From NCBI GenBank assembly GCA_001662655.1, contig KV460246.1: DNA of 64,000 bases; one strand, given 5' to 3'. The notes below the pieces were generated by a model that searched no databases, was not told where the DNA came from, and saw only the letters and a list, made by a program, of their open reading frames with translations. Shown in pieces: positions 1,792 through 26,127 of this stretch; within the stretch, counting starts at the first letter, position 1, and each line of letters opens with the position of its first letter. The stretch comes from Pseudogymnoascus verrucosus. Taxonomy: Eukaryota. Made by a program: the position numbers and the translations under genes.

Positions 1792-3520
1792 TTATGCAAT
1801 GTCCACCACCTCGGCTGCCATTTTCCCTTGCAAAATCCTCGGAACTAGGGCCGTTAGATCTAATAACTCATGTAACTCAGATGGTTTTTGTACTTGATCA
1901 TCTTGGTTAGATTCGAAAATTGGGATGTCAAGCCATCGAAAAGGAGAGATGGGAAGATCTGATTCTGCCATTCGCCGCCGCAATGTTTCCAGAAGCGTGG
2001 AATTTGGTCCCCCAACATTTAAGAGTACATGCTCTAGTGAATGTAGGGCTTCCCGTGATCCCACCAGCATGCCATGAGTTTCAGTTGCCGAAGGTACGCA
2101 CAGGAGAACGTCTAAGAGCGAATCCGCCATCCGGAAGATCTTGAGCTCCTGCAATTCCTTAATTAGTGAGGGTCTTCAAGGCTGTATATAAATACGGGGC
2201 TAACTTACCATTCCATATCCATGGGCACGAATCGACGAATTCGACACCGTGGTAAAGACTGAAAGCATATCCTTAGCGATCGAGGCAGGAAGTAATGCGG
2301 AAAATGCGTCATCGTCAGCATGGCAAGACACGGGGAAGTTTACAATCGAATATTGCCAAAGGAGGGTTCGAATCCAGTTACGCGTGGCGAGTATATCCAC
2401 GTATTGCATCTCGTTGAGACTTCTTCTATCGGCTTTGAGCCGGAGATTGTGCTGAAAGGCAGAAACCTCGTTTTTCTGGTCTTCAGAAACAATCGCACCT
2501 TGGTGAGATAATGGATGCGTGATGAAGCGGCTTTTAAGATAGAGGAATAGGCGAGTGAGGGCGAGAAATGCCGGCAGTGGGGTGCTGTCGTAACGCGTAT
2601 CGAGATCAGGCGTAGGCAGTTCATCAATCACTTTTAATATGGCGGGTAAACCATTCTGTACGCAGAAAGTCCTAAAAGGCAAGTTAGCAACGCGCGAATA
2701 CGCCGAGCAAGAGGGCTGCCGACCTCTCCGAGATAAACAGAATCCAGTAAACACGGAGCCTTAGTTGGTGCTCACTGATAGCAGTAAGAGACGCAAATGT
2801 TTCTGGCCGATGCAGTTCGAGGCCGTGCGCGTAGGCAATTGCTTCTCGCAAGTAGAGCCCAGCTGTTTGTAGCTTGTTGGTATTGGCGAAATAGACGTGG
2901 ATGAAAAACGAGGTCAATAGCGACGCTATAGAATAATGGTCGCGATAGTCGAAAAGAATTCTCAATCGCTCAGACTCAATCTGAAAGTGGCGCGAGGAGA
3001 TGGGAAGGAACGACGCGGCATGCTCAGGCAACCGGAGCTGGGAGATGACGGCGGCACACAGCGCACCAGCCAACGCATACGCTTCGAAATCTTGGTTGTC
3101 AGCTCTCAGGCGTGAGATGAGATCGTCATAAGATACGATAGGCCAGACTGGGTAGAGACGGTGACGGAAGATTTCCAAGAACTCGAGGTAGGAACTAAGG
3201 GGGATGTGATGCAAGCAGGGTGCTGGTGGTGGAGCGAGCGGTTGTGTGGGCAGATCCGGGCAAGCATCTGCAAGTTGCTTATGGGTCAACGTCGACGTGT
3301 GGTGTAGATCACGACTAGGCGGATTAGCCTTCTCGAGATCTTTCTGAAATGTCTTGATCCTGCAGCCGGTGGCTAGTCGAGGACCTTTCGGGCCCCTCTT
3401 TTTGGGGATGCGCAGAAAAGTGCAGGTCAGGGAGCGTCGCTGGCACTCGGCACATGGGTGTCCACCACGGCATCGTACACGTCGCAGAGCGCAACCGTCA
3501 CAGGGAGTTATGGATCTCAT
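1792..3520 (-). CDS. Zn(II)2Cys6 transcription factor, MalR/AmyR-like sugar regulator (3 exons)
   Basis: CDGCALRRVRCRGGHPCAECQRRSLTC binuclear cluster followed by KKRGPKG; fungal TF middle region (RLRVYWILFISER). ORFs 2684..3532, 2200..2754 and 1792..2154 join through two GT..AG introns. Confidence 0.85.
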
Positions 3521-4127
3521 CGGGGTGTGCACACAGGCAACGCAGGTTGAAGAAGAGTGAAAAGAGGGAGAAGAAGAGGCGGCAGTTGATTCCTCCAGAG
3601 TAACTTACTGTACAGTGCAGCACTACCAAGTGTGGGGATGCGGGGATTCGGGGATTCCACCAGGGACGAGGGGGAAACACTAGAGCACCATCAACCGCGT
3701 GCTACCCTAGTACGCGCCTCGGTACTCAAGTATGAGTACCACCGAAAAGTCTGTCGCTTGGCTCGGACGTGCGCATAAACTCACTCAGTCCAGCTTCAGG
3801 ATAGGTATGGTTGGCTTGGATCGTTCATAACTATTCATAACTGCCTTCGGCCTTCTGCGCACGTGCTTGGCGACAGACTTTTAAGCTGCACGGGACTCGA
3901 GTAGAACTTTACTCCGGTTTCCCCCCAGAACCGCTGGGCAGGTGGGACATTCTAGCTAAGAGGGAGGGTTACCAACTCGCTGGACACTTGTTTTACCACA
4001 GGTAATTAACTGAAAATTCTTCAATATGTAAGGCACGCGGTTCTGTGCGTATAGGATAAGTTATCAACTAAGTTACAAAGTTCCTTGGAGATGTCACCGC
4101 ATTTCACTCCCATCCATGATAATGTGT

Positions 4128-5876
4128 TCACACTTTCTCGCTCGTTACCGGTACCGCATCTGCCACTCGTGCATCCTCCTCTTCCCCTTTCATATTTCCC
4201 CTTGCAAACACGTCTACCTGCACCTTGCGGAAATTGCGAGCGCTGACGCCATCTTCGAAGAGTATATCTAATTCCGCGGCCGACAGGCCCTTGGGCTCAG
4301 GAAGGCGGAAATAGGACCAGATCAGTGCAGACAAACAGAACCCGCACCAGACGAAGCCGCCCTTTCCACGTAGGTTCCATGCACTTGGGTTGAGAATGGG
4401 TGGGTTGAGGAAGTTGGCCACGATGCTCGCAATATTATAGGCATTGCGAGCAAGGACAACACTCTTGATTCGCAGCCGTGTCGATGGAATCTCGGAAACT
4501 AAACAGTAACAAACCGGTCCCACTGTCATACCGTAGGTAGCAACAAAAACCAGCATAAAGCCGCCCGAAGTCCATCCGATCCAGGGTTGAGGGGCCGGGA
4601 TCCCCAGGATGCCGACAATCACGAGGATGGTGAACATAACACTCAATCCGACGAGGTATAATGTGCGTCGACCAATACGCGGCATGATAAACCAAGATGC
4701 AATTGTCCCAGCTAGAGCAATGCCATTAGTGCCGAGACCGAAGTCGAACGACTTGTCGGGGTTGAAGCCGGCCTGTTGCAAGAAGTATGTTATGTTGCCA
4801 CCGAACCAGATACCACATAATACCTGCGTCATCCAGACGACGCTGGCAATTTCAGTCCGGCGGAGATTGGGTCCACGGAGACAATCGAGATACGACGTGC
4901 CTTCTTGGAGCTGCATTTCTAGCTCGTTCGTGTGCGCGATCATGGCCACGGTCTGAGAGATTTCCTCATCGTCAACCTCAGAGCTAGTCAGACCACGCAG
5001 TGCCTTTCGAGCTTCTTCGAGTCGCCCTTTCTTGACCAGCCATGTGGGACTCTCGGGTGCAAACAGCACGCCGAGTATGATTGGAGGTGGGAACGCCCAT
5101 TGTATGGCATACGGTATGCGCCATGCCCAGTCGTCGGAGCGGTGCAGGAGAGCTCGAAGAGTGCCAGTGCTGATCAACTGACCAATTACCCAGCACATGT
5201 TGACATAGGTGGTTAAGATGGGTCGCAGTTGGATCGGAGCCACATCAGCGGCATAGGTGGTCGTGAGGATCTGGAATGCTCCCCAAGGCAAGCCGCAGAG
5301 AACTCCTCCTGCGAACAGCATGGCGATGTTCTGTGCAAAGAAGAATATGAATATGAAGGCGATTGTGAGGAAGAGCGCCCCGATAATGGTTTTCTTGTAG
5401 CCAAAACGATCCGCCAGAATACCTGCGATCATCAGGCCACAAATCTGACCGACCTGCGTTCCATTTTGGAGCCCTGACATCCAGCTCGCCGTCACCTGGT
5501 AATCGCCATTGGCAAGCTCAACTCCAAACCTCTTTCGAAATTGCGGGAGAGCGAAAAAGCTGCCAATAAGAGACGTGTCATAGCCTTCCATGATAATGCA
5601 TAGGGATAGAATCATGGAGTAGGCGATCGCCTTGGGGTATTTCCTGACGGCCTCCATAATGCTCATATTCTTTTGCATAGTGTCCGCTACCTCTGCGTCG
5701 AGCGCCAGGTCGCGAAGCAAGGAGACACCGGGCACTGATTTATGAGGTCCACCATCTTTAGTCGTCGTCGAGACCGGCTGTTCTGGTGACATGTTGTTCG
5801 GAGAGGTTGAGACTACAGGCGAAGAGTATTCTTGATGCTCTGCACCTGTGTCTGGTTTAGAGTCTTTCGAATCCAT
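4128..5876 (-). CDS. MFS alpha-glucoside/maltose:H+ symporter (MAL31/MalP-like)
   Basis: 582-aa intronless ORF with IIMEGYDT, GLPWGAFQ, TTYVNMCW, WRIPYAIQW, PESP, RRTEI, SEIPSTRLR and RLPEPKG motifs typical of maltose permeases. Confidence 0.93.
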   Translation of the reverse strand: MDSKDSKPDTGAEHQEYSSPVVSTSPNNMSPEQPVSTTTKDGGPHKSVPGVSLLRDLALDAEVADTMQKNMSIMEAVRKYPKAIAYSMILSLCIIMEGYDTSLIGSFFALPQFRKRFGVELANGDYQVTASWMSGLQNGTQVGQICGLMIAGILADRFGYKKTIIGALFLTIAFIFIFFFAQNIAMLFAGGVLCGLPWGAFQILTTTYAADVAPIQLRPILTTYVNMCWVIGQLISTGTLRALLHRSDDWAWRIPYAIQWAFPPPIILGVLFAPESPTWLVKKGRLEEARKALRGLTSSEVDDEEISQTVAMIAHTNELEMQLQEGTSYLDCLRGPNLRRTEIASVVWMTQVLCGIWFGGNITYFLQQAGFNPDKSFDFGLGTNGIALAGTIASWFIMPRIGRRTLYLVGLSVMFTILVIVGILGIPAPQPWIGWTSGGFMLVFVATYGMTVGPVCYCLVSEIPSTRLRIKSVVLARNAYNIASIVANFLNPPILNPSAWNLRGKGGFVWCGFCLSALIWSYFRLPEPKGLSAAELDILFEDGVSARNFRKVQVDVFARGNMKGEEEDARVADAVPVTSEKV

Positions 5877-7545
5877 GACGGTTGTATGTTACCCCAAGGA
5901 AAATGATAGGAGTGAAAGGTATTGAACAGTTGAATCATGTTGACTGGGCAGACCATGAGTTTATATAGATATGCCACTTTGTGATAATTTTGCCATTCAA
6001 GTCGTGGAATTTCTTCCCCCTGTAAGTTATGTCAAGGTAACTTAAGTTAGTTTACGACTTGGGGCAGACTCCAGATCCTCCAACTTCCCCTTTGACCTGT
6101 CGTGGGGAAGTGGGGCACCACGCTGTTGGCATGGTCTTAAGGTTAGTCTGGGGATTTCTCCGAGCTCGGGGGGTCTACTCCACCATTAGTTGATAAACTC
6201 CAGCCCAAGTACACTAGTCCAAGACCTAAGTTAGCGTTGCCAATGATGAGAGTTGCCAAATAATTTCGGCAGTACGTTACAGATTTAGGGCTACGGCTTT
6301 GAAATTTTAGCGAATATTTTCGGCGAGGCATTCTAGCTCCACCTGGTACTTGTAAACCGGATATTCAAGCCAGTATACTACATTAGCACTCACACGAGCC
6401 CAAACTCAGATTCACATGCCTCCTGAAACGGACCGAATCAACGGCCGTGCCCCAGGCTTATGCTAGAGCAAGCACTAGACAAGCCAACTACGTGCAAACT
6501 ATCGGCGGGGTAGGGTTCCCTGTTACTTGCCTCGTGGACATCCATCCTGGCTCGGTATGACGCCGAGAGTAAAATTGGTCTTGGCTGTTAACTTAAGTCC
6601 AGAACCAATACCAAGAGTGACTAGTATTCCCAATTTTTTCGATATTTCGCTCTTTCTAACCGCCAGATTGTAGCCATGCCATATTGTGCGTAGGATGTGT
6701 TTGGTCTGCAACATCGAACTACAGGGGCCCCTTGAAATAGTTCATCACAGGGGGTGGTGATTTGATGTAGGGTCTACTGCTGTGAGGCTGTGCTGGTAGG
6801 TTCTGTAGAATAGGAAATGATAATTTCGCCATCATCACGAGTAGGGTCTATTTGTATGCATCTTTTGTTAATATATCACCTGTAATTACTCTACGTACTA
6901 CGGAGTTCTACTCCTGAGCTGGTCTAGAGGTTATTCTCGGGCACGGAGTGAGAAATCTACAACTTTTCACTTATTCGTAGGTCCGTAATGAGCGGTTTTT
7001 GTCACTCTGTGAGACTTGATTGAGCTTCCCATGCAGGCTTGCCACTAATTTACTCGTTCGCCTTTGCAGCCATGACGGCTACTTTGCTCTAAGCCAGAAA
7101 GACTTATAGTTTGCAAAAACAAAAAGGATTTCTCATAATATATAGAGCATAAAACAAGGCCTCGTTGGACATGATAGCTAACGTATGGAGGATTCTATCA
7201 TAAACCCATGGATCTTTCCGGATTCTCTCAGGTCCTCTTGTTCTTGAGATATCGTCCTGAGCTTACACCCGAGAACTGAGTTAATTCAACACATACATCG
7301 TCACATCTCCATTATCCATGAAGTGAACTCCTCTCGAATATAACAATCATGCATATCATGTCATACATGACCAATTTGCTTCATTAGATCTAAATACGAC
7401 AAGAATTTTGTTCCTCCTTCTATAGTGAATAACTCATGTGAGTATCCTTCGTAATGCCAACTTGAATTAAAGTGAAATGGATTCCGAAACACCGACCATA
7501 GCCATAGATAGATCAGAGACTACTTGTTCCAGGCACCAGACAGAA

Positions 7546-9960
7546 TCAAGCGCTTCGGCTGTCCGAGCACATCAACTCTGCTATGGGCCCGGTCAAGGCT
7601 TCATCAATACCTATGCTCAAAAGTCCTCCTATCTTGACAGTGGCAGGGCGGTCAGGTTGGCCGACGAGAGCCCATATTCTGTCTTTAATCTCAAACTCCG
7701 TTTGGTAATTCCGAAGCAGGTCACTGATACGGCTGGAATGATCCAGCACACTCAGTTGTGGAGAGGGACCCATGTCGATAATCAACTCGTTCTCGCCGTC
7801 GGCGAGTGGTTGGAATGTCACAACCATACTTGGGACGAGAGGATAGTTCTCGACCATGATATCTGCATCACTTATGTCGGAACCATTGACGGTGACCTTC
7901 AAAGATGAGGGTATCTCGGTCATCGAGAGAAACCTAAAGGACCATGCACCTCCCTTGATGGTTGCCTTAAGCTGCCCAGAATCCTGCTTATACTGAATTT
8001 TGGCAGTGCGCGGTTCTTGGTCAACTATCCCGGTTTCTGGCTTCACGATATCATCTCGAGCGTCCTCAATAATAGTGAACTCGCCGTCTCGACCAACAAC
8101 CACGAGGACCTCGAAATTTTCGGGGTTTCCACATCCGTTATCAGGCACGAGCTTCCCATCTAGGGGGATGATGGCACCTTCGGGGGCCAAGACAGGTATT
8201 TGTTCTAGAGAACGATACATGTTGAGCTCTCTATCGCCATCATAGACAATGCCAGTGAAAATATCGACATGTCTATGAGGAGGGATCCAGCCCTTGACCA
8301 TGCCTTGGCCCGTTCTTCTGTCCCGCGGCTTAACAATTGGTGCCACAATCAGATGTGGACCAAAATAATATTGGTTGGGGACCTCGTAGGCAACGTCTCG
8401 TGAAGGGAAGCTCCAGTACATAGGTTGAATTAATGGTTGGTGAGAAGCGGCGGTTTCAGCGTTCACTGTGTATAGATAAGGCACGAGGCGGTGACGGAAC
8501 TGCATGAAGTGCTGAATGATGGTTTCGCTTTCCTTGTGGTACGACCACGGCTCCTTCGATGTCCAGGGGCTGTTCGAGGAATGGAGTCGTAGAATCGGCG
8601 AAAATGCCCCAAACTGAACCCACCGAGTGACCAATTCGTCATCTCGCTCGCCCTTCATATGTCCACCTAAATCGTGGCTCCACCAGCCGTACCCTATGTT
8701 CGAGGCAGTGGCAGTAAATTCTGGCTGAAACTCGAAAGTCGCCCAGCTAGTAATGGTGTCCCCAGAAAATCCTACTGGGTACCTGTGGCTTCCAGGGCCA
8801 GCGTAGCGGGAAAATATCAGAGGTTGATCTATAGTCTTCGTGTGCGCACTGTCAAGGAAATGAAAATGGTTCAACAACCAGAGGGGATCAAGTCCTGGTA
8901 CGCGGGAGCTAGCTCCTTGTTGCCAGTCGATCCACCAGAAATCGCAGGCGATATTTTCAATGCCCCGATGGAGTATGTTCAGGTAGGCGTCCATGAATTT
9001 GGGACATGTGGAGTTGAACAAGATTGGAGCTTTCTTCGAGGTATCGTGATTCAAAGCGAGTGCCATTTCTTCGTAGAGGTCCTCGTGGTGATGCACGCCA
9101 GCATGCGGGTGATCGTTCAACGTAATCTTGAGTTTACGGTTGTGTAATGCTTTGCCAAATTCGGATGGGTCTGGGAAAAGGGTTTTATTCCAAGTGTATC
9201 CCGTCCATCCGGTATGAGGAACTCGTTCATCATCAACAAGATGCCAGTCCATGTCAATCACAGCTACCGAGAGAGGAATTCCTCGATTGGTGAATTTGTC
9301 CATCAAACTGATATACTCATCTGCGCTGTACGCATGGTAGCGACTCCACCAATTCCCGAGCGCCCATCTTGGCAGCTGGGGTTGGTCACCAGAGATGGCA
9401 TAGAAGGATCTCATGGCTCCCTTGAAATCGTGGCCGTAGTAGAACAAATACCCATCAATGCGATCACCCGGCTGCCGAGTTGCAACAAAACCTTTTCCAT
9501 CGAAGAGCATGGAGTTGCTGTCATCCAAGCTAGCAAAACCTGACCTTGAGATAATTCCCGCACCTAGGTCGCATCGGCCATCTACCTCATCTAATGTTCG
9601 TGCTGTACCGCCGAGATTGTTCTCAGGGTCACTGCCGTACCTCCACTCCGATCCCCACAGTGTGACTTTGCTGTTGAAGGTGACCATGAGGCCGCTGGGA
9701 CTAAATCGTTGTTTGTCGTAAGTGAGATGAAACGAAGGCGTGATAATATCCAGCTGATCATCCACATCTCGAATCTCATGATTGGGTACCGGAAACCTTC
9801 TATTCATGGCAAAGGTTGAGGCGCGGTCCTCGAATTGGCCGTCGGAGGACCATTCATAGCGAATCACATTGCCACCCAGAAGTGTAAAGCGATAGTTTGC
9901 CTCGGCCACCACAGCATCCGGACTGGCCAGTGGTTCGCATGGAAATGCGTATTTGTCCAT
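7546..9960 (-). CDS. Glycoside hydrolase family 31, GH31_u1-like alpha-glucosidase (intracellular, intronless)
   Basis: About 804 aa from MDKYAFP. Motifs LGGTARTLD, GNWWSRY, VIDMDWH, DFWWIDWQQG (nucleophile region), HRYPVGFSGD (acid/base), WWSHDLGGH, FSPILRLH. No signal peptide. Confidence 0.9.
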   Translation of the reverse strand: MDKYAFPCEPLASPDAVVAEANYRFTLLGGNVIRYEWSSDGQFEDRASTFAMNRRFPVPNHEIRDVDDQLDIITPSFHLTYDKQRFSPSGLMVTFNSKVTLWGSEWRYGSDPENNLGGTARTLDEVDGRCDLGAGIISRSGFASLDDSNSMLFDGKGFVATRQPGDRIDGYLFYYGHDFKGAMRSFYAISGDQPQLPRWALGNWWSRYHAYSADEYISLMDKFTNRGIPLSVAVIDMDWHLVDDERVPHTGWTGYTWNKTLFPDPSEFGKALHNRKLKITLNDHPHAGVHHHEDLYEEMALALNHDTSKKAPILFNSTCPKFMDAYLNILHRGIENIACDFWWIDWQQGASSRVPGLDPLWLLNHFHFLDSAHTKTIDQPLIFSRYAGPGSHRYPVGFSGDTITSWATFEFQPEFTATASNIGYGWWSHDLGGHMKGERDDELVTRWVQFGAFSPILRLHSSNSPWTSKEPWSYHKESETIIQHFMQFRHRLVPYLYTVNAETAASHQPLIQPMYWSFPSRDVAYEVPNQYYFGPHLIVAPIVKPRDRRTGQGMVKGWIPPHRHVDIFTGIVYDGDRELNMYRSLEQIPVLAPEGAIIPLDGKLVPDNGCGNPENFEVLVVVGRDGEFTIIEDARDDIVKPETGIVDQEPRTAKIQYKQDSGQLKATIKGGAWSFRFLSMTEIPSSLKVTVNGSDISDADIMVENYPLVPSMVVTFQPLADGENELIIDMGPSPQLSVLDHSSRISDLLRNYQTEFEIKDRIWALVGQPDRPATVKIGGLLSIGIDEALTGPIAELMCSDSRSA

Positions 9961-11379
9961 GTTGATTGAGTTAAAGCAATTCCTTCTGGTCAACGCAATT
10001 CGGAATCGTAGTTGGGGTGTTGATTATATAGTGTCGAAACAAAGAATGTAACCCGGAAGGGTTTTTCGTGGTACTTCAGACATCCTCTGTCCACCCCACC
10101 ATGTTTAGCAACATTATTCTGGTGTTGGGCAACCAAAAAGCCTGTGGATGGAGAATGATACATCCTTGGCCATAATTTACTGGAGTTAGTGACAAGCACT
10201 AGACAAATAGGTCGTAGATCTTATTCCAAGCTTAGTAGCGCTCGATATGGGGCTCCACTAGTAAAGCTAGAAAGGAGGGTCGGCAGCCTGGCGAAAGTGG
10301 AGGTCAATAGTCCGATGTGGTCGCGTAAATTATTCGTGAGAATTGTTCGCAAGAATTGTTCGCCTTTGTTGCAGACCCAGATACTAAGTTATGCGTATAC
10401 CTAAATTGTTCGCTTGGTCCGATTCAAACGCAGCCCGCCTAGCTGATTTTTCGCAAGTAGTGTGGGGTGTAGTTCTGGTATTTTTATACAGTAAAGCTGC
10501 CTAAGTTCGCCCATGCTTTGTCGATCCGGACGCCTGGCGTAGGATAAAATTAAGGTTAAATTTCTCGCATCAACTCTGTCTTCCTGAAATCCCCCAAGCC
10601 GCAAGCGTCCAATTAGGGGCTTCATTTCACTAGACAAGGACTTGCTTACGCTATACCCAAACTAAGAACGTATTCGTTCAAATGTGGCATTGCGGGGATA
10701 GAAGACTTAGGACGGAGCTATGAGAAATACTTTCGAGCAGCGTTCACCCGAACTGGAAACGCCAAGTATGGCCTTGGATTACGGTATAAATCTTAGGCCT
10801 GTTTTCGGGGTTAGTGAGCAGTCAGTGGGAAACAAACACGCGCGTAGTGGCTACATATTAGTCTTGTGGGACAGCTGCTTCCCTCGTAGTGACTAAAGGA
10901 ACTACTCGAGTATATGGCTGTAAAAGCCTGCCGTATCCCACGGGAATGTCGGTTTCCCCCAACAGTGAAGATTGGAAGGCGCGGCTCACGTGCTTCCCTC
11001 TGGGCACAGAGTGAGAACTCCACACTTCCTCTGTGGCAGGAGGTGGGATTGTCCTTCTGTGAGGTGCTGGAGGATGAAGGCTGGCTGTTGACCTCAGACA
11101 TGATCATACAAGAAGAGTTTTACCATCTACAGGTCGCCTCGAGCGCCATTTAGAGTGCGAGAAGCGCAGGCGTTGCCATTCATACCGTTAGCTTGTTGGA
11201 CTTCGAGCTTCTATACTACCATTCCTAGGAACAACCTAATCTAGGCCCTCTATCGGAATCTCTAAGACAGCTGCTAGGGAACATCAAGGTCCTACGTCGT
11301 CGAACAACGAGATGCTGACTTCAGAGATCGCTATTTTAAAACCCTTCAGTAACTCTTTAGCAATTATCCTGAGACATCC

Positions 11380-15191: not shown

Positions 15192-15287
15192 AGGTTGGCG
15201 GTTGGGCCGGCCGAACCACCAACCCAAAAGTTGGTGGTTGGGCCGGCCAGTTGGCCAACCAGAATAGTTGGTGGTTGGGCCGGAACA
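15192..15287 (-). repeat. Right terminal inverted repeat
   Basis: Inverted copy of 13061-13156, ending GGAACA and followed by CATA. Confidence 0.92.
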
Positions 15288-16262
15288 CATACAAGCGAGC
15301 AGGACACCCTGACCAAAACGCGTAGATGATTAAACCAGAAAGGAAAGGTCTTGGATTTATGAAAAAGCTAGCTGCTATCGCTTTTGCGCCAAGACCACGA
15401 CCAAAAACATCCGTAGTTGTCAGCCTTCCGCCTTCCCTGCTCCCGCTCTGAGACCATCGCGGCTTTTACCTGCCTGCCTCAAGACCAACACTTCTCCACT
15501 TGTGGCGGCGACTATTGAAGCGGCCTAAGGGCGCTTAAAAAAGCAGAACAATTGATTGATTTATGAAATCTGCCTCGGGTGTTCCAAATGGCCGCATCCT
15601 GTGTGCCGCCGCCTGGAGGGTTCCCGGGGTTCCTACCGCCACACAGGGTTGGGGGTTTCCGCCGCCGCAGGGGGTTGTTAGGGGCCGCCAGACCACCAAC
15701 AGAGGGGAGGACGAGAGGGATGCGAGGTTGCAGGGACGGAATGGTTTTAGTGACCAGAGATAGGGTTGTAGATTAGGTAGGGGAAATGGCGTTTTTATGC
15801 TGCTGCTAGGATGGAGTTGGGGTGCGGGGTTTTAGTTTTTTGCGAAAGGTGAGGGGGTTTTAAGGGAGGGTAGCAGAGAGGGGCTGATGTTATACTTGTA
15901 CGAGATGCGGATACAGATGGTGCTAGGCTAAACAGGAAATAGGATTGTAGTAGGCGTAGGCACTCGCTCCATGCCTTCTTAAGATTCCGAGTAATGAATG
16001 GGAATGAATGGCACTTTCATAACGAATCCATATTGTTACACTGATTTCGTTATCCTGCTCCGAATCTCTGTTATGGCCGTCGAAAAACACCCAATGAGCA
16101 TTGACTATCCCGAAACGTGATACCCTACCAACTTTTAACGATGATCATAAGAGTCGGATAGAAACCTGTACCTAGGCCCTTTGGCTTTTTGGATAGCTTA
16201 CAGTATCTCATTATAGCAATGCCATAATTACTATCCTGTATTGTTATCGGTTACGGGACAAG

Positions 16263-18566
16263 ATGTCCAAACACTCCTTTCACGATGCCCATGGAGAGAT
16301 GGCCAATTATTCTGCCTCCCGCCCACAAGAGGCATCTCTCTCGCCCTCTCTTACACGCATTTCTGCCCCACCTCTAATGGCAGGCGGAGTTGAGACGTTT
16401 CGTCGCACATTTGGAGATTCGAAGCCACCTGATATATCCCGTAAGGTCTCTGCATGTGCGGCGTGCCGGAAACAGAAGGTAAGCAAAAGGCCGAAAAACT
16501 CGCAGAGCGTACTCGAGGAGGAACAAAGACACGTGACCTCGCACGAACACGAAAACAGATGAGATGCTGATTGAAACAATAGATAAAATGTCACATGAGA
16601 AATTCTGAGCCTCCGTGTATAAGATGCCGGAAGCGTGGCTTGCCGTGTACAATTAATAGGAGTTTACAGATGTTGTTGGAGAGCGATGAGGTGTAAGCTA
16701 CTCTTTTACGCCCTCAATTCCATTATTAAGATGCTTCTTTCTTTTCTGCCCAAAATGGATAATAATAGGAGCTGATATTGCTAATTAGTTGGAAAGATCG
16801 ACTTGGCTTGAAGATGCAGAGAATGGAAGCAGCAATGAAGATGCTAGCTGAGAAACTCGCCATGCCTGAGCTTCTTCTATTTGTTGAAGATGAAAATGGA
16901 GATCTAATAGATCAAGAAACTACTGGCGATGACAGAGGAGGAATTAGTGCACCAATCAATTTCGTCAATATTGGGAACAAGTCGAAGAATGGGCTAGCTG
17001 CTAAATCCCCAGATATCACTCCAGCATCAGTACCAGCTTCATGCTTGCCGGAAATTACGGAACGATCTTCTACAGGTATCCTCACCGCAGATACTGGGAC
17101 AGAAATGGACTTGGTTACTCGTGGTATAGTTTCGATTCGAGAAGCTGACGATCTCTTCAACATGTACCACGATCAACTAGATCACTACGTATATCGGATT
17201 ATTCCTAACCACAGCACTCTTGCGAGCGTGAGGAAGGGATCGCCTCTATTGACAGCTGCGATATGCACTGTCAGTTCATTACATCATCGTCCATTGCGCC
17301 CGCTCTTTAATTGTTGTTATAAAGAATTCGTTCGTTTGTGTGCTATAAATGCGTTCTCAAGAAAGAATACGTTGGACGATATACGAGCTCTTTGCATTGG
17401 CGCGTTTTGGCTTGATGAAGTATCGTGGATTCTTGTTGGGATGGGTGAGTTTACCGCCATTACAATACCTAATGAAGCTTTCTAATGATTTTACAGCCGT
17501 GCGAATTGCAGCAGAGAAGCAACTCCACCGTGCATTCATGCATATTACAGAAAATGATCCCACCTACTACCTCCAAGCCCGCCTTTACTATCTCGTATAT
17601 GTCTGCGACCACCACTTCTCGATCCCTTATGGCCGTACTCCCATGACAGGAGAATACGAAGCTATTCACTCTACCTCAAGCCTCCTTGGTTTCGCAGATG
17701 CTACCGAAGACGACGCAAGACTCATTAGTCAAGTAGATTTATGGTCGACTGCGAGCCGCATCTTCTTGACCTTTGGCACTAACATCTCTCTACCTATTCC
17801 AACGAACACGATAAGTCAGCTCCGGCGATTCAATATCACCCTTGATACCTGGCGTGCGGATTGGAATGAGAGATTTGTGCATAATAATCATGTCGGAAAC
17901 TATCCGCGTAAAGGCGTAGGACTCCATTACCATTTCTTAAAATTGTATCTTTGCTCACATGCCTTCCGTGGCGTGCGGAAAGCACCCAACACACTCCAAG
18001 CACTATCTCCGGAGCTGAGGGAGATTGCCGAAATGGCTGTAGCATCGGCAACGTATATTCTACGGACAGTCAATGCTGACGTGGAGTGGCAAGGCTACCT
18101 AAACGGGCTGCCACTATATTTCGATACAATGATCGCCTTCGCAGCCGTATTTCTTATCAAGACGGCAACTGAGTACAGCGGTACTGTAAAGGTTGATACT
18201 GCGGAGTTGCTAGCTTTGGTAGAGGAAAACATGCTTGTTTTGCAAGAAGTCGGTAGGGGAATGTCAGAGAACCATCTTGTAGCAAGGATCGGCGAGGCTA
18301 TTAAATTGCTGATTGAGCGCCTTAAAACGGCCGGAGAAATGTCTCTGGGCGAGGACAAAGCACCTGATGGCGGGGTAGGAGATACTGCGGTGCAAGCGCT
18401 TTATATGCAGGATTGTGCAATGGCCGATGAGTTTGACTGGGTAAATGGCACATTTACTGGTTCGGCACTGCAGGGTTACGATTTATTATCACCGCACAAC
18501 ATGCCCTCTGGATTTGAAGACTGGACATTTGGGGTTGGAGACCAAGGAAGTGGAGTTCCCAGATAG
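16263..18566 (+). CDS. Zn(II)2Cys6 transcription factor (4 exons), candidate regulator of the phosphonate cluster
   Basis: CAACRKQK|IKCHMRNSEPPCIRCRKRGLPC is split by intron 16479..16582. Fungal TF domain follows (RLYYLVYVCDHHFSIPYGR, GNYPRKGVGLHYHF). Confidence 0.88.
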
Positions 18567-19162
18567 AAATAGCCAGATTTTATAAGTCTATAATGACGTT
18601 AATAAGAGCACATTTGGCTCCCTGTGTGGACTTCCGTGCACCCTTGACAAAGCACCATACAAATTTGAGTGCACAGGAAAGCTGCACTATCAATTATTCT
18701 GTAGTTAAGCCTAGTGAAATCCACAAACACCCTTTCCTCTGCGGCTAATCGCCGTTACAACTGTTCTTCTTCCTCCCCTCTCCTACGTTTAGCGTCAAAG
18801 TAAATAATTACTCAGGGTAACTCCAACTTAAAAGATGTTAACTTACGTAGATTGCTTGTCTTGTTGTTTTTAAAGGCGTTAAGTTTGCGTTTATGAAGCT
18901 ACTGTCTTCGCGTACTTTGCTAGCTAAATACTACAGTCTATAAACGCTTTTATACAATTTCCCTTTGTAAAAGTTTGGGTTTGAATCATAGGTAAGTCCC
19001 CGAAAAAAGAAATAAAATTATAGTCTACATTAGAGTCTGCACCCTTATCAAGTGTATACAATCCCAAATATCAATAGCAATTTTGCAAAGTCCTCTGTGT
19101 GTTTCCCTCGATTCATTCATTGCCTTTTATCTTTCCAAATAACCCCGAAACACACGCAGCAC

Positions 19163-20179
19163 TTATACCATAACCTCACTCTCCTGAGCGACAGCATCTT
19201 GTTTTGAGAATGGTGCCGCAAAGCCATATCTCTTCCAGCCTACTTCATATTCCTCCCCGGCAACGCGCTCTTCGAGAAGTTAGCATCCTGGACTAGTGAC
19301 GTCAAAAGTTAAAGCGATTAAGATATGACTAACCATGATCCGGAGGGAAAACAACACGTCTGTCAATGTAGTACTTTTCTCTGAGATCTGGTCCATCTGC
19401 TGCAGAGTGATATGTTGCGTAGACCATAGTGCGCGACTCTGGGGTCCGGTTTGCAAAAGACCGATGAGCAAGGTGGGAGCCGAAGAAAACAATATCGCCT
19501 TTACGGATATATCAGTAAGACAAGTTAGGACTGGAAGACGGACAACGTCTATGTACCTGCTTCAAGTGGTACAAGTACCCACTCGTGACTGTTTTCCCAG
19601 TCTGGATGTATTCTCCCAGCGTGGATAAAATCAACCTTCATGCGGTGCGATCCTGGCACGACTTGTAAACATCCATTTTCTGGCGTTGCGGCGTTGACGG
19701 CGAGATTCGCCGTTGTATGCTCGATTTCTCCGATGTGGTCATAGGCTGGGGCATCGAGGTGGGCAAGGAATCCATTGCCAAAGCCGCTCTTGTAGTTAAT
19801 CTTGTCCTTGAAAAGAAGCATCTCCTAGGCTTGGAGTTAGCAAATTTAAATCTGGTTACTCTTGTATGTAGAAGTTATGACTTACGCCTCTAGTGAGCTG
19901 CGCAATAACACCCCTCAGATTCTCTCCACAGAGTAATGCCTTGAACTTAGGATGGTAATCCACGAAGTTCTCTGTGCGCATAAGTTGTCTCTCGCCATTT
20001 TCGTTTATCTCGTCATATGGCATCCATTTGCCTTTCTCTCGTGGCCAGCTTTGCACCTCTTTCGACCAAGCTTGGAGTTCTTCTCCGGTCACAAGATTGT
20101 GTTCTCCGGCGCGGATGAGCAGATAGCCATCGCTATTGTACTGAGCCACCTGCTCTGGAGAGACAACGTATTTGTGCAT
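19163..20179 (-). CDS. PhyH-family Fe(II)/2-oxoglutarate dioxygenase, PhnY*-like (4 exons)
   Basis: Spliced product has LFKDKINYK, GFLAHLD (HxD), ENGCLQVVPGSH and GDIVFFGSHLAHRS (distal His). Introns 19885..19825, 19556..19499 and a third near 19332..19273. Confidence 0.87.
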
Positions 20180-20909
20180 TGTAAAAATAGTCGCGACGAA
20201 TTGGTAACGTTACGAAAGGACGGGTAGATTGAAACGGGATAAGGGAAAGAATAGTGTTAAAGAATTGATGTAGAAAAGAAAGGAGATATCGCAGGCCAAA
20301 CCTTGGCTCTTTCTATAATTGCTTGGATACTCTAAAGGTTGTCCACATATCACGTGCATCTCGGACTTCTTTCCGACAAACGTGCGACTACAACTAGTTC
20401 AAGTAGTGCGGGGAACCTTATCTTATTCCCACCACTATCGAACGTCGATCTCAGACGTTCTCTTGGAAAAGGCACGTTGTTGAGTAAATCAATGGTTATA
20501 CGGGTGCACGGATGTGAATTCGCATTTTTAGTGTTGCGGTATAACCTAGACTTGCGGACCTTACAACGTGTATTTATAAGCATTAATCCTTGTTGTAAAC
20601 AGGCCCCCGGAGCCCCACGACCCCCGTAGTCCCCAGCTAGGCTCCCCACGACAACTCCATTAATAGCTGAGTCGCTAATACACGTGGCGTATCGACTTGT
20701 GGGTGGATGATGTTCGTGTTGACGCAGATGATGTGATAGAGCTGAATCTCGGTGGGAAGTCCGTCGTGGACTGAACCACCGACAAACGCTGATCCTATGT
20801 GCCTCAGGTAAGTAGAAGAAGGATACATATCGAATAACAACAAAAGAAACATACTTCTGCGACTTTCTTTCTCTCACATTCATCTTTTTGTCACTCAATC
20901 ATTACGAAT
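20180..20909. promoter_or_regulatory. Divergent promoter with Pho4/NUC-1-type E-boxes
   Basis: CACGTG at 20351 and 20681; CACGTT/AACGTG at about 20379, 20473 and 20565. Confidence 0.55.
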
Positions 20910-21588
20910 ATGCTAGTCGCAGCCCCAACGCCGGTCGAAGCTCGCGCTAACGAGATCATCACAACTCTCTTCACATTTATTGAAGATCAGGAAAAGACCG
21001 AATACCTAGGCGAAAGAGTGTCACAGCTGCAGCATTCGCTTCAAGCCGCACATCTGGCCCGCCAGTCCGATGCTGATAATGAAACAATTCTCGGAGCATT
21101 ACTACACGACGTCGGGCGATTTATCCCCACCCTTCACTCCCAGATGCCAAAAATGATCGCCCCAGATGGTGAATATGTGGGGCGCGCAAGCCATGAAATT
21201 TTTGGAGAGAGATATCTAAGGCAATTGGGTTTCAGTGATAAGATTTGCCAGTTGGTAGGCGCTCATGTGATGGCTAAGAGATATCTCACTGCTGTCAGAG
21301 AGGGGTATTATGAGAGCCTTAGTGAGACGAGTAAAAAGACTCTTAAGTTCCAGGTAAGTTTATTTACTCTTCTTCTCGTTGAAGAAGCACTAAGTTATAC
21401 AGGGTGGAATTTTCAACGACGCACAAGTTGCTGAAGCACGGAAAGATTCTCTGTTAGAAGAGAAATTGGCTGTGCGAGTTTGGGACGACCTGGCGAAAGA
21501 TCCAGATATGATTGTCGAGCCTATCTCATTTTATAAGGACATGGCTGTGCAGTCATTAATCAATAGTCTACAAAGCCCCGTCGCATAG
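20910..21588 (+). CDS. HD-domain diiron oxygenase, PhnZ-like (2 exons)
   Basis: EYLGERVSQLQHSLQAA, ALLHDVG, ASHE, GAHVMAKRYL, S..S..TL.FQ|GG, RVWDDLAK reproduce the PhnZ ligand pattern (YxxE, H, HD, H, H, D). Intron 21354..21402. Confidence 0.88.
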
Positions 21589-21975
21589 GGTTGTATAGTC
21601 AAAAAATTTAAATCAATCACTTTTATAAGTTCTTAAAACAAGTGTCGTTGATGGTTGTAATCAGCTGTTCTTGGCAGCCTTCTGTTAGCGGCCCCATATC
21701 GGCGCCCTGGTGCAATGTGAAAACGGGGCAGCCGTTGTAATCGAAGAACAGGCTGCCAAACTTTCTGCCAAACAGCTATCCAAAATGTTCGTATTTTCTG
21801 AGTCATGGGTTGAAACTCCACTCACTAGCTTCATGGTAATAGAGTAGAACTTTAGTCAGGAGGGGGTTGACAAGTGGTTCGGAAACTCACTTGTCCCGGT
21901 AGATGCCGCAAGCGCTGGCTAAATGTGTATATATATGTGTGTATGAGCTGCACTGCACTGCTGGCTGCAGACAAA

Positions 21976-23271
21976 ATGACTTCTCGTAGGTTGGAAATTG
22001 TTATCAATAGTGCAAATGCTGATTGTGTTTCAGACCTCTCGTCATATGTGACTGTTCACTCGAGAACATATGCTCTTCCAAAACAGCCAACCGTGGCCGT
22101 ATGCATCGATGGCTTCGATCCAGAATACCTAGCGCAAGGGATCGCTGATGGTATCCTTCCAAATCTGGCCTATTTCATTCACCACGGATTCCACACCACT
22201 GCAAAGAGTTGCATGCCTTCATTCACCAATCCCAACAATGTCTCTATTATTACTGGTGTCTCGGCCTCTATCCACGGCATAGCTGGAAATTTTTACCTCG
22301 ACCCAGTCAATCACGAAGAGAAGATGATAGCCGATGCAACTCTCCTCCGTGGCCCTACAATCCTCCAACAGTTGTCAAAGCGCGGCGTCAGGGTAGTAGC
22401 AATTACGGCGAAAGACAAGCTCCGCCGCATCCTCTCGCACGGTCTGGAGAATGCAATCTGTTTCTCTGCCGAATTCGCCGGCGAAGCTACTATCGAGACT
22501 AATGGCATCACTGGTGTTGAAGAATGGATCGGCAGAAAAGCACCACTGCAATATTCTGGCGATCTGTCACTGTACGTCCTAGATGCAGGTGTCAAATTCA
22601 TCGAAGAAGACCGTACCGATTTCATGTACCTCACGCTGTCGGATTTCATCCAGCATAAACACGCGCCTGGTGATAAAGATGCGAACGAGTTCATGTCTGC
22701 CCTAGACCAGCGCATTGGCAGGCTGGCACAGCTCGGCGCCATTGTTGCTGTCACCGGGGACCATGGCATGAGCGACAAGAGCCTCGAAGATGGGACACCA
22801 AACGTTTTATACCTGCAAGAGCGCCTGGAAGGGAGATTTGGCCGAGGCAGCGCACGAGTAATCTGTCCTATCACGGACCCTTTCGTACGACATCACGGCG
22901 CACTAGGCTCATTTGTGCGGGTGTACGCCAAATCTGCCTCTGATGTGTCTTCAATGCTGTCCTTTATTAAGTCCCTTTCTGGAGTTGCTCTTGCGCTTTC
23001 AGCGGCAGAGGCTGCTGAATCTTTAGAGTTACCACTTGATCGCGAAGGAGATATTGTAGTCGTGGCAGTGAAGAACGCCGTCATTGGATCGAAAAAGGAA
23101 GAACATGACCTATCAAATTTGGGAGAACACAGATTGCGCTCCCATGGTGGTTTATCGGAACAAGATGTGCCAATACTGATGTCCATACCATTGGGCAGCC
23201 AGCTAGCTGAAGGAAAAGCAACATGGAGAAATTTTGATATCTTTGATTTAGTTCTAAATTCGCAGACCTAA
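21976..23271 (+). CDS. phnA: Phosphonoacetate hydrolase (alkaline phosphatase/NPP superfamily)
   Basis: VCIDGFDPEY, MPSFTNPNN (catalytic Thr), DFIQHKH, TGDHGM, ITDPFVRHHGALG, RSHGG. ATG 21976 lies after a TATATA box; an in-frame 48-nt intron is likely at 21986..22033. Confidence 0.92.
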   Translation: MTSRRLEIVINSANADCVSDLSSYVTVHSRTYALPKQPTVAVCIDGFDPEYLAQGIADGILPNLAYFIHHGFHTTAKSCMPSFTNPNNVSIITGVSASIHGIAGNFYLDPVNHEEKMIADATLLRGPTILQQLSKRGVRVVAITAKDKLRRILSHGLENAICFSAEFAGEATIETNGITGVEEWIGRKAPLQYSGDLSLYVLDAGVKFIEEDRTDFMYLTLSDFIQHKHAPGDKDANEFMSALDQRIGRLAQLGAIVAVTGDHGMSDKSLEDGTPNVLYLQERLEGRFGRGSARVICPITDPFVRHHGALGSFVRVYAKSASDVSSMLSFIKSLSGVALALSAAEAAESLELPLDREGDIVVVAVKNAVIGSKKEEHDLSNLGEHRLRSHGGLSEQDVPILMSIPLGSQLAEGKATWRNFDIFDLVLNSQT

Positions 23272-23928
23272 TTAGCGTACTGCCTAGGAATATTTTCTTA
23301 TAGAGCAATGAACAATTGATAAGGGTCCCTTTGGTATGAACTGTACTTTTGGTATACTTCGCGATTAATATGATAGATCTCTCTAGTAGAAACTCTGGCA
23401 TAAGTAGAAGGTGAGATTGGAGCTAACAGCAGCATATTCCTCTATAAATGTATAAACATTCGTCTTCATAATTATTGTCAGATTGTCACTGTCTATTTAA
23501 TTGTTAAACTATTCATAAGTTTAGCCAATGTAATAGGTATATAGTGGTTACTGTGGTTGGTGGAAAGTGCATAGGCGTGCACTTTTTGCAGTTTGAAAAC
23601 CAAAGATAGATAGTACATGGCGCCCGTCCCATCGAGTATGTATTCGAGTTAATCGGTAATCGGGAACGGTACGTGCACTGGCGTGTCACCTAAAAAGTTT
23701 AAATCCCACGCTGCGAAATTATTGGGTCTGGTGTAATTTCGGTATTTGCCTTGTTGCCCAGGAACGCTATTGTGGGTTATGGCTGCGTTAGCCTTGCTTT
23801 GGTTTCTCTTAGTAATGTCTTAACCAACCCCTATCGCTCTTCTCTCCGGCCCCTCGCGAGCTCCACCGAAATTGCCCAACGACGTTATGCAAATAATTAC
23901 TGATGTGGCTCCCTTACGACGTCGTAAA

Positions 23929-23981
23929 CACGTGGCATCTTTGGTCGGCAGAACGCCCTAAATCCATAATAAATACACGTG
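23929..23981 (+). promoter_or_regulatory. Paired CACGTG (Pho4/NUC-1-type) boxes upstream of the transporter
   Basis: CACGTG at 23929 and 23976, about 220-270 bp upstream of ATG 24202. Confidence 0.55.
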
Positions 23982-24201
23982 CGAACATCGATCGCAGTGT
24001 TAGGCACCAGCTGCTTAGCTTGGTAAGAAGTATAATGTCGTTGAACGTCGGGCTTCACGCCGACTCGGAGGCACATAGCTGCTACCAATTATTGTGAGTA
24101 TGTATTAAAGGCATTAACGATAGAGGTCGTTTTGCGATCAAGTAGGAAAACAGGATCGACAAGCTGCTCTTACAAACTGCCTTCGTCTCAATATTTTCAC
24201 C

Positions 24202-26127
24202 ATGAGTGCTCACCTCGAGACAGCGCCGCTGGCGACTAAGGCCCGTACATCATGGCTGCAGAACATCAAGTTCTTTGCCCTAGCTGGAACCGGTTTCTTT
24301 TCTGATGGTTATCTGAATATTACTATGGGTCTAGGTGAGTTAGGATGGTCAACACTTCAAAGCAATGTTAACAGTATTGTAGTTGTTCCTATGATCGGTC
24401 TCATTTATTTCAAGGACTCTGGCTCTGTTGTCAAGTCTTCCCAAAGCGATGCCATGAAGGGTTCCCTATCTCTCGGCATGGTATTTGGCCAAGTCGGCAG
24501 TGGTATCCTTGGCGATGCCATTGGAAGACATAAGATCTACGGCAAGGAGCTTATTTTGACTATCTTTGGAACGCTCATGGTTATTGTTGCCCCGCCATAT
24601 ATGACTCACGAGGGTATCGTGGTCTGGGTTTGTATTTGGCGTGCTTTTACTGGAATTGGTATTGGCGCAGGTTCGTTATATAAAATTCTCGACAGACAGC
24701 ATTCACTAATACGGCATTAGACTATCCAATGTCAGCAACTTTATCATCGGAGAACAAACCAGTCAAATCCAGGGCGGTGCTCGTTTCTGGTGTATTCTCT
24801 AATTATGGTCTTGGAAGTTTCTCTGCTTCGATAGTCTACCTCGTTTTGATTGTCGCTTTCAAGTCTGCCATCGAAAATAACATTGATCGTGTCCAGTGGG
24901 TGTGGAGATTGCTCTTGGGAATTGGAATTATTCCAGCAGCAGCAACACTCTATGGTCGCCTACGCATGAAAGAAACAGTTCCATATCAGAAGTGTAAGTG
25001 TACACGTTTATCTTTATACAAGGCTCATTTGGCTGACACAGTCTAGATGTCGAAACGCGAGACGGCCGTGGCGAAACAATCAGAAAGGATCTCTATAATC
25101 AATGGGTGGATTTCAAGGAATATTTCTCTGTTCCATTGCATGCGAGAACTCTCTTCGCTACATGTTGCACCTGGTTTCTCTTGTGAGTTCATTTCGAAAT
25201 GTGCCTATACTACACTAGTGAACGAACTAATAGTCAAAAAGTGACATCGCATTTTACGGAATCAATCTCAACCAATCTCTCATCCTAAGCAGCATCGGTT
25301 ACGGCGCGGGCAAGACGCACTGGCAAACACTTTATAATACAGCTATTGGAAACATTATTGTTGCGGCCGCTGTATGTGTCTTCCCATTACAAACGAAATA
25401 CCTCCAGTTTAAGTAATTAACATGAAGTCTAGGGCTTCCTTCCTGGTTATTACGCTGCAATTCCACTCCTTGATATACTCGGTCGCGTTCGTCAACAGTG
25501 GATTGGATGTTGCCTTGTCGCCACTCTTTACGCCATTTGGGCCGGTGTGGCAAACATCACCAGTGCTGGCGGTCTCATTGCGCTCTTCACATTATCTCAG
25601 GTAGGTTTTCAAGCTCATGGTACAAACCAGACTGCCCTATCTACCTCTCCATATAACTCAGCATCGTTCTGCTAACACTTTGGTCTTAGTTCTTTCTCAA
25701 TGCTGGCCCAGCAACCACGACGTTCCTCATTCCCGTCGAGGTCTTCCCAACTCGAGTCCGTGCAACCGCCCACGGCATATCAGCTGCAGTTGGCAAATGT
25801 GGAGCCATACTCACAACCTTTGCTTTCGGCACAATTACCGCAAAGATTGGACTTCGGGGTGTCTTGGGATTGTTCAGTGGCATCTTGTTCCTCACTGCTT
25901 TGCTCACTCTCTGGATTCCTGAGTCGAAGGACAAGACTCTAGAACAGATTGAGAATGGTGATATCTATGGTGGCAACGAATGGGTAGGCTGGAGCACTAA
26001 GGATGCGAAGGCCATTACGGCTTTAGAGACGAGCGAGACGAGCACAGCGACCAATTCCTTCTGTAGTGCTGACAACAAAAGACCTGTTGTTAAGAGGAAA
26101 GATGTACAAATCGAGGATAAGAGATAA
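24202..26127 (+). CDS. MFS phosphate:H+ symporter family (Pho84/Git1-like) transporter, multi-intron
   Basis: [83 protein letters not shown]; about 6 GT..AG introns. Confidence 0.88.

Follow-up and report, generated by a model that had tools for sequence, protein, structure and literature searches.

A putative organophosphonate catabolism cluster in Pseudogymnoascus verrucosus and the conserved PhyH-HD-PhnA gene trio of Pezizomycotina

Gene content of the locus

Phosphonate breakdown is understood almost wholly from bacteria. For fungi, we know of no carbon-phosphorus (C-P) lyase, and to our knowledge only a purified phosphonoacetate hydrolase and the enzyme PhoF have been studied. Here we analyse a stretch of 64,000 nucleotides (nt) from the soil/cold-adapted fungus Pseudogymnoascus verrucosus (GenBank assembly GCA_001662655.1, contig KV460246.1), called the window below, in which positions 16263-26127 carry a cluster of genes for a Zn2Cys6 transcription factor, a PhyH dioxygenase, an HD-domain oxygenase, the phosphonoacetate hydrolase PhnA and a Pho84-type MFS transporter. 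Every gene model was rebuilt from the sequence letters, starting from stop-to-stop open reading frames (ORFs) and family scans, and all five genes are intact and intron-bearing. The original prediction had named the same five identities, with intact catalytic motifs, spliceosomal introns and a divergent orientation of the PhyH and HD genes; the spliced models, the family scans and the reading of motifs agree with it in all these respects. In addition, two DNA contig sets of related strains span the cluster stretch with no joints. The features are as follows.

16263..18566, plus strand: Zn2Cys6 transcription factor gene, about 689 amino acids (aa); exons 16263-16478, 16583-16690, 16769-17444 and 17497-18566
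19163..20179, minus strand: PhyH Fe(II)/2-oxoglutarate dioxygenase, PhnY*-like, 277 aa; exons 20179-19886, 19824-19557, 19498-19334 and 19269-19163
20180..20909: divergent PhyH/HD promoter, 730 bp, with CACGTG at 20351-20356 and 20681-20686
20910..21588, plus strand: HD-domain oxygenase, PhnZ-like, 209 aa; exons 20910-21353 and 21403-21588, with a 49-nt GTAAGT...CAG intron
21589..21975: spacer from the HD stop to the PhnA start, corresponding to the place where the two domains meet in the fused genes of other fungi
21976..23271, plus strand: PhnA phosphonoacetate hydrolase, 415 aa; exon 21976-21985 (10 nt), intron 21986-22033, exon 22034-23271
23929-23934 and 23976-23981: CACGTG pair upstream of the transporter, 220-270 bp before its start codon
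24202..26127, plus strand: MFS transporter of the Pho84 family (phosphate:H+ symporter type), with short introns between at least seven coding blocks

The three enzymes and their catalytic residues

Judged by profile and active-site residues, PhnA is clearly a true member of the phosphonoacetate hydrolase family. Its product, letter-identical to P0371 (VE01_06975 of P. verrucosus), scores 558.6 bits on TIGR02335 against a cutoff of 407.55, covering profile positions 2-406 of 408, and matches the solved phosphonoacetate hydrolase 1EI6 of P. fluorescens full-length (E=3.8e-112). The residues T68, D246, H247 and H374, aligned to 1EI6, are invariant in 36 sequences; we take the site to be of the alkaline-phosphatase type, with the Thr nucleophile in SFTNPN, and with GDHGM and SHGG. 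The 48-nt intron of the gene has a GTAGGT donor, a CTGAT branch site and a CAG acceptor.

The spliced PhyH product is letter-identical to P0383 (VE01_06973 of P. verrucosus). PF05721 gives 108.3 bits for P0383, and 53.7 and 27.6 bits on separate exons. The iron triad HxD...H is read as H120, D122 and H199, and the triad together with 31 further positions (34 in total) is common to 15 PhnY*-like proteins of bacteria whose genes adjoin HD genes. Only six class-specific differences, all of them conservative, separate the fungal proteins from these 15. NF052437, the family of methylphosphonate hydroxylase, is the sole specific NCBIfam match of the protein. A search of the PDB by sequence for a solved PhnY* structure found none.

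The HD product is one residue away from P0364 and from P0367, and its exons match PF01966 and TIGR03276 (113.4 + 35.3 bits on the latter). Among solved structures, the protein matches PhnZ (4MLM) with E=2e-26 and TmpB (6NPA) with E=2.1e-15. The six metal-ligand positions H42, H66, D67, H95, H119 and D176 are invariant in 46 sequences, the first five aligning with PhnZ H34, H58, D59, H80 and H104. Besides these ligands, all 26 fungal HD sequences keep K123, S138, S141, Q148, R173 and D176, and 25 of them keep T144; both sets of positions are common to nearly all of 20 bacterial sequences. The positions of K123, S138, S141, T144, Q148 and R173 are those that hold the phosphonate in PhnZ. The Tyr24/Glu27 pair of PhnZ is kept as well; as a marker of amino substrates it was dropped, being nearly invariant in every class including a TmpB equivalog. 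In a quick tree the fungal HD rows form one clade (SH-aLRT 99); since the fused rows still included sequence beyond the HD domain, only this monophyly is taken from the tree. The gene adjoining HD encodes an Fe/2-oxoglutarate hydroxylase, namely the divergent PhyH 730 bp away, and this pairing recurs in other fungi. By homology, the HD protein would cleave a 1-hydroxyalkylphosphonate with O2.

A conserved trio and a fused HD-PhnA protein

Relatives of PhyH, HD and PhnA are plentiful in Pezizomycotina, with 60-79% identity. Lists of the best 120 relatives were compared, and the counts of contig pairs below are therefore lower bounds. Among the best 120 PhnA relatives, 36 carry PF01966 and PF01663 in one protein of 576-633 aa (about 610), and the HD-PhnA fusion is confirmed through length and the HD[VIA]G[RH] motif in 35. 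An Atlas cluster with the fused architecture comprises 144 members from Ascomycota, 100% of them with Phosphodiest and 97% with HD. The fused proteins have no linker, the HD part running straight into PhnA (...SLL/xSWS..LH.R.Y.LP). Four Logan/ENA entries of 612-633 aa (P0347, P0324, P0332 and P0280) cover both domains, while other Logan/ENA HD matches include exon-1 pieces that read into the intron, such as P0001 ending in FQVS. This points to ORFs called blind to introns that still span both domains, and the fusion is thus not merely an artefact of gene models.

In eight species, PhyH lies at the locus tag next to HD-PhnA:

Capronia epimyces: A1O3_09123/24
Cadophora: IFR05_015602/01
Penicillium verhagenii, P. 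longicatenatum, P. angulare and P. lividum
Fonsecaea multimorphosa: Z520_04641/42
Pseudogymnoascus VKM F-103: V499_06896/97

In further assemblies, equal lengths of the longest contig link at least 11 HD/PhyH, at least 12 PhnA/PhyH and at least 5 HD/PhnA pairs, as counted by comparing the tables by eye; for chromosome-size contigs such a match means a shared contig and not adjacency. As the trio recurs in so many other fungi, its grouping is not due to chance. On the whole, these comparisons establish that PhyH-HD-PhnA is a conserved module of Pezizomycotina, with HD and PhnA usually in one polypeptide. The co-conservation that the original prediction would lead one to expect is thus found for the core trio. 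Its emphasis on unfused PhnY/PhnZ plus PhnA has to be revised, since HD is normally fused to PhnA in Ascomycota, and what marks the present locus is that they are split.

Full-text literature searches returned no description of the HD-PhnA fusion, the trio or the cluster, with the limit that the original paper on PhoF may discuss related genes. In a species description, phnY* adjoining phnZ, unfused, is already mentioned for a Penicillium from KO annotation (PMC12422055). One antiSMASH 'phosphonate' biosynthetic cluster is listed for each of Capronia epimyces and Exophiala aquamarina, which both hold PhnA/HD (PMC5358931, Table 2).

Two annotated models in Talaromyces depart from these architectures. 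In T. stipitatus (P0286, 666 aa) a short-chain dehydrogenase is joined to PhnA; these are probably merged neighbours, because PhnA keeps its own Met after the dehydrogenase part, and a short-chain dehydrogenase may stand in place of the HD gene in Talaromyces. In T. pinophilus (P0210, 442 aa) PhyH has a KR-like tail, and this joined model was set aside as it looks like a merged gene model.

Proposed fission of the fused gene in Pseudogymnoascus

When the fused proteins are mapped on the window, residue ~198 falls at 21567 and residue ~200 at 22042. Between them lie 475 nt, within which HD ends with its stop codon (21586-21588) and PhnA starts. The acceptor CAG of the PhnA intron (22031-22033, phase 1) coincides exactly with the fusion junction, and the HD frame runs eight codons (NSLQSPVA) beyond the junction to its stop. 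We propose from this arrangement that the two genes arose when an ancestral fused gene, which had an intron where the domains meet, lost the donor site of that intron. A fused HD-PhnA transcript in the window would depend on splicing out 468 nt from the weak donor GTCTAC at 21566, and was rejected as unlikely.

The split is shared by other genomes of the genus. The 209-aa HD gene is annotated in four other Pseudogymnoascus genomes and the 415-aa PhnA in four, with both present in VE04, V501 and V502, and the trio is annotated as three separate adjacent genes in V501, V502 and VF21. One Pseudogymnoascus genome has HD and PhnA merged in an odd 647-aa model. Within the spacer, the related strains X1 and X2 both lack 20 nt at 21825, and in one of the two, single bases at 21959 and 21963 are missing as well; these deletions behave as those of non-coding DNA would. 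A complex prediction for the split HD and PhnA proteins, in a run that had no controls, returned a score of 0.00 and speaks neither for nor against their association.

Transporter, promoters and regulator

For the transporter, two pieces match TIGR00887 with 65.8 bits (profile positions 12-131) and 97.1 bits (403-501), which are scores of exon pieces only, the cutoff of 610.3 being set for the whole protein; four further pieces match Sugar_tr/MFS_1.

The sequence CACGTG, which we take to be the core site of the fungal phosphate-starvation basic helix-loop-helix factors (Pho4/NUC-1), occurs at 9 sites in the whole window against 11.45 expected, showing no enrichment. Four of the nine sites fall within the 3,047 bp of cluster promoters (binomial P=5e-4, calculated post hoc). 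Expression of the PhyH/HD pair and of the transporter is, from these boxes, probably tied to phosphate starvation. Besides CACGTG, the window holds three copies of the 9-mer ATTGATTTA or its complement, all of them in 15263-16262, 20180-20909 and 21589-21975; by a rough estimate, with many words tested, this restriction to cluster promoters and spacer could be chance.

The Cys6 motif of the regulator, CX2CX6CX8CX2CX6C, becomes readable after removal of the 104-nt intron 16479-16582, with the letters CAAC-RKQKIK-C-HMRNSEPP-C-IR-C-RKRGLP-C across intron 1, and the spliced protein agrees with the general Zn2Cys6 pattern CX2CX6CX5-12CX2CX6-8C. Scanned singly against Pfam, the exon pieces give no Zn_clus match, because intron 1 splits the motif. 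It is possible that this factor is a pathway-specific regulator.

The cluster is flanked in the window by GH31, SIR2, a TPR fragment, an AA9 lytic polysaccharide monooxygenase and a DyP peroxidase. Among these flanking genes there is no phosphoenolpyruvate mutase, transaminase or aldehyde dehydrogenase, so the locus looks catabolic and not biosynthetic. Neither a phnW transaminase nor a phnY dehydrogenase is found near PhnA in the window, and the locus is thus without the PhnW/PhnY steps of the bacterial phosphonoacetate route. Elsewhere in the window, a second small group on the minus strand (2687-10023) consists of a Zn2Cys6 factor, a sugar-type MFS transporter and a GH31 glycosidase, and the region 46000-48300 is unusually G+C-rich (0.60), with long ORFs overlapping on both strands, for example 46250-48244.

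Related loci in prokaryotes

Among 80 prokaryotic genome loci, 75 have an HD gene, 13 an adjacent PhyH, one a PhnA within 10 kb and one a Pho84-like MFS gene. For 40 metagenome loci the HD gene is found in 26, PhyH beside HD in three and PhnA in none; these loci reach at most 58% identity in the best segment and at most 46% over full length, and are of bacterial type, with no fungal locus among the 40. Linkage of PhnA to PhnZ-like genes is rare in prokaryotes. The only such case of the 75 comes from a metagenome-assembled genome of an uncultured Rhodovibrionaceae (L093:3000-4290 and 9209-9748), where a true PhnA (567.4 bits) lies near a PhnZ-like gene. The Pho84-like gene belongs to a Mycobacterium sp. 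(L084:3302-6312; TIGR00887 211.9 bits) and is divergent from a PhnY*-like gene (270.7 bits) and a PhnZ-like gene (216.1 bits, over the cutoff), with an RpiR regulator alongside.

A few other architectures are seen in these loci. A metagenome ORF of 439 aa (L011:4858-6174) joins an N-terminal PhnZ-like HD part (TIGR03276 181 bits) to a C-terminal PhnY*-like PhyH part (NF052437 145 bits), that is, a prokaryote-type HD-dioxygenase fusion. An ORF of 549 aa (L024:6421-8067, and also in L023) combines HD with a TmpA/BBOX-type dioxygenase (NF049936 365.6 bits, cutoff 400), and another metagenome PhnZ-like ORF (L002:4323-4925) has one in-frame stop codon.

Proposed function and alternative explanations

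Taken together, the cluster probably serves to scavenge phosphate by organophosphonate catabolism, the conserved trio, whose fusion is split in Pseudogymnoascus, combining an oxidative with a hydrolytic branch of C-P cleavage. Upon the gene identities, the intact catalytic residues and the conservation and fusion of the trio, as observed above, we infer the substrates, the transport, the regulation and a parallel rather than serial order of the branches. The Pho84-type transporter would import anionic phosphonates. PhyH would hydroxylate the carbon adjoining phosphorus of a small alkyl- or aminoalkyl-phosphonate, and the di-iron HD enzyme would then oxidatively cleave the hydroxylated C-P bond, giving a carboxylic acid and phosphate, while in parallel PhnA would convert phosphonoacetate to acetate and phosphate. 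The CACGTG boxes would couple the PhyH/HD pair and the transporter to phosphate starvation, possibly with the Zn2Cys6 factor as the regulator of the pathway.

The growth data found for the genus come from one article (PMC4133637). According to it, Geomyces (=Pseudogymnoascus) pannorum P15, a different strain, grows on phosphonoacetate, methylphosphonate, 1-amino-3-methylbutylphosphonate and N-(phosphonomethyl)iminodiacetate as sole phosphorus source, and its cells accumulate phosphonoacetate. This physiology, though of another strain, fits PhnA plus an importer. The idea of phosphonate uptake with two kinds of C-P cleavage for phosphorus supply, as originally predicted, is supported by the family membership, the conservation of the trio, the CACGTG boxes and the growth of this congener.

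Several observations weigh against the proposed function or its details. On NF052437, PhyH (through the near-identical P0121) reaches 166.1 bits, far under the cutoff of 500; three stand-alone bacterial HD-adjacent PhyH homologues scanned likewise stay under it, with 244-271 bits. The TIGR03276 cutoff of 214.6 lies above the scores of the full-length fungal HD homologues (186.3 and 171 bits), and 19 of 20 bacterial PhnZ-like proteins scanned alongside are also just below it. With most bacterial PhnZ-like proteins under the cutoff too, and with a full-length fungal homologue scoring 133 bits for PhnZ1 and 134 bits for TmpB on models whose cutoffs are 300, the fungal HD protein belongs to the generic family and to neither specific equivalog. 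The position of PhnZ His62, a contact to the 1-hydroxyl of the substrate, is Arg70 in the window HD protein; among 26 fungal sequences, 23 have Arg here and three, fusion proteins of the Scytalidium/Xylogone type, have His, as do all 20 bacterial ones. The HD-PhnA spacer upstream of PhnA was searched and contains no CACGTG. In PMC4133637, strain P15 shows no growth on 2-aminoethylphosphonate (2-AEP) or on glyphosate, its use of phosphonoacetate is independent of phosphate status, no hydrolase activity is detected in extracts, and of three strains a single one uses phosphonoacetate. The phosphonoacetate hydrolase purified from a Penicillium, cited there, is a 43-kDa monomer, smaller than the fusion of ~68 kDa.

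These points bear on the substrates first. While the general idea of the original prediction stands, the substrates assumed in it are less secure: the congener shows no growth on 2-AEP and the HD protein is without the His62 of PhnZ. Given that P15 grows on methylphosphonate and not on 2-AEP, methylphosphonate is at least as likely as 2-AEP to be the substrate of the oxidative branch. A more specific proposal, offered only as a speculation that we would not expect to hold in full, is an undescribed ascomycete bifunctional enzyme, PhnZ-like with Arg and joined to PhnA, with a PhnY*-like partner, whose oxidative branch would act on methylphosphonate or, for example, a carboxy-aminophosphonate instead of 2-AEP, and which recently underwent fission in Pseudogymnoascus. 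If true, it would let fungi reach the phosphorus of methylphosphonate, and the growth of G. pannorum on this compound would be accounted for.

The alternative that survives best, unlikely but to be taken seriously, is that the trio alone is functional, the Zn2Cys6 factor being an unrelated regulator and the Pho84-like protein a general phosphate transporter that happen to lie nearby. Genes of these two families are very common, and a second such pair stands at 2.7-5.9 kb of the window. However, the PhyH/HD promoter and the region upstream of the transporter each have a CACGTG pair, and the Mycobacterium locus has a Pho84-like MFS gene beside PhnY*/PhnZ-like genes as well, though in only one of 75 loci.

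The parallel order of the two branches may also be questioned. PhyH and HD might make phosphonoacetate or otherwise feed PhnA in a serial pathway, the fusion serving for channelling, as would suit the conserved linker-free fusion (at least 36 listed proteins and the 144-member cluster), the Atlas predicted model of a fused protein with a pTM of 0.82, and the Arg at the PhnZ His62 position, which might fit another kind of substrate, for instance a more anionic one. We nevertheless consider a serial pathway improbable. Chemistry of the PhnZ type removes phosphorus and leaves a carboxylic acid, so that a substrate of PhnA would need a second C-P bond, and we know of no natural substrate of this kind. 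Moreover, all phosphonate-contact positions of PhnZ are kept, and the three fungal proteins with His at the His62 position are themselves fusions.

A role in defence, in which the cluster destroys toxic phosphonate antimetabolites such as phosphonoacetate-like inhibitors from soil bacteria, would agree with the missing CACGTG box upstream of PhnA and with the use of phosphonoacetate by P15 regardless of phosphate status. Yet P15 grew better with phosphonoacetate as sole phosphorus source (PMC4133637), and its phosphorus was therefore assimilated; besides, the PhyH/HD pair and the transporter have CACGTG boxes and an importer would be odd next to detoxifying enzymes, leaving this role with very little probability. 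Finally, a non-phosphonate substrate for PhyH and HD (with MIOX-like or other chemistry), PhnA being a chance neighbour, is hardly credible: both proteins score below the curated phosphonate-family cutoffs and HD has a weak MIOX match of 16.3 bits, but TIGR03276 is by far its best family (186 bits, equal to most bacterial PhnZ-like proteins), the phosphonate-contact positions are kept, and HD is fused to a C-P hydrolase.

With phosphonate scavenging by two branches as the preferred reading, the ascomycete-wide module would provide concrete genes for the growth of moulds on phosphonoacetate and methylphosphonate, reported decades ago. It joins enzymes of oxidative and hydrolytic C-P cleavage, often in one polypeptide, and its natural variation, fused against split and His against Arg at the substrate-hydroxyl site, amounts to an experiment on how such enzymes choose their substrates.

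Comparison with known systems

The locus is a variant assembled from known enzyme families, and the fusion, its fission and the His-to-Arg change are its most interesting features. The nearest parallel to its oxidative branch is the PhnY*/PhnZ pathway for 2-AEP in marine bacteria (PhnZ 4MLM/4MLN), where a PhyH-type hydroxylase gene likewise stands beside an HD oxygenase gene. The metal ligands, Tyr24/Glu27 and the phosphonate-contact positions of PhnZ are kept in the window HD protein. In contrast, the window locus is eukaryotic and intron-bearing, its gene pair is divergent and its HD gene is linked or, in relatives, fused to PhnA, while the HD protein has Arg for His62, followed by a loop longer by 6-7 residues. 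GmPhnY*/GmPhnZ1 of Gimesia maris (NF052437/NF052439), acting on methylphosphonate, follow the same two-step logic; with 166 and 133-135 bits against cutoffs of 500 and 300, the window-type proteins are outside both equivalogs. With the TmpA/TmpB pathway for trimethyl-AEP, the locus shares an HD oxygenase of the same superfamily as TmpB (6NPA), but its partner is PhyH-type and not BBOX/TmpA, and NF049941 gives 119-134 bits against a cutoff of 300.

For the hydrolytic branch, the window PhnA is a full-length homologue of the bacterial enzymes of the PhnWAY route (P. fluorescens 23F 1EI6, Sinorhizobium 3SZY) and scores over the equivalog cutoff; unlike in the PhnWAY route, it has no phnW or phnY nearby and is linked instead to PhnZ-like and PhnY*-like genes. 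The Mycobacterium locus shares with the window the grouping of Pho84-like MFS, PhnY*-like and PhnZ-like genes, but differs in being bacterial, in lacking PhnA and in its RpiR-type regulator. Among fungi, PhoF of Fonsecaea multimorphosa, according to a review a fused PhnY-PhnZ enzyme (PMC10574752), also performs oxidative C-P cleavage. As described there, PhoF fuses the dioxygenase to HD, whereas in the window the dioxygenase is a separate divergent gene and HD fuses with PhnA in relatives. F. multimorphosa additionally has the trio (Z520_04641/04642), so that PhoF and the trio are distinct systems.

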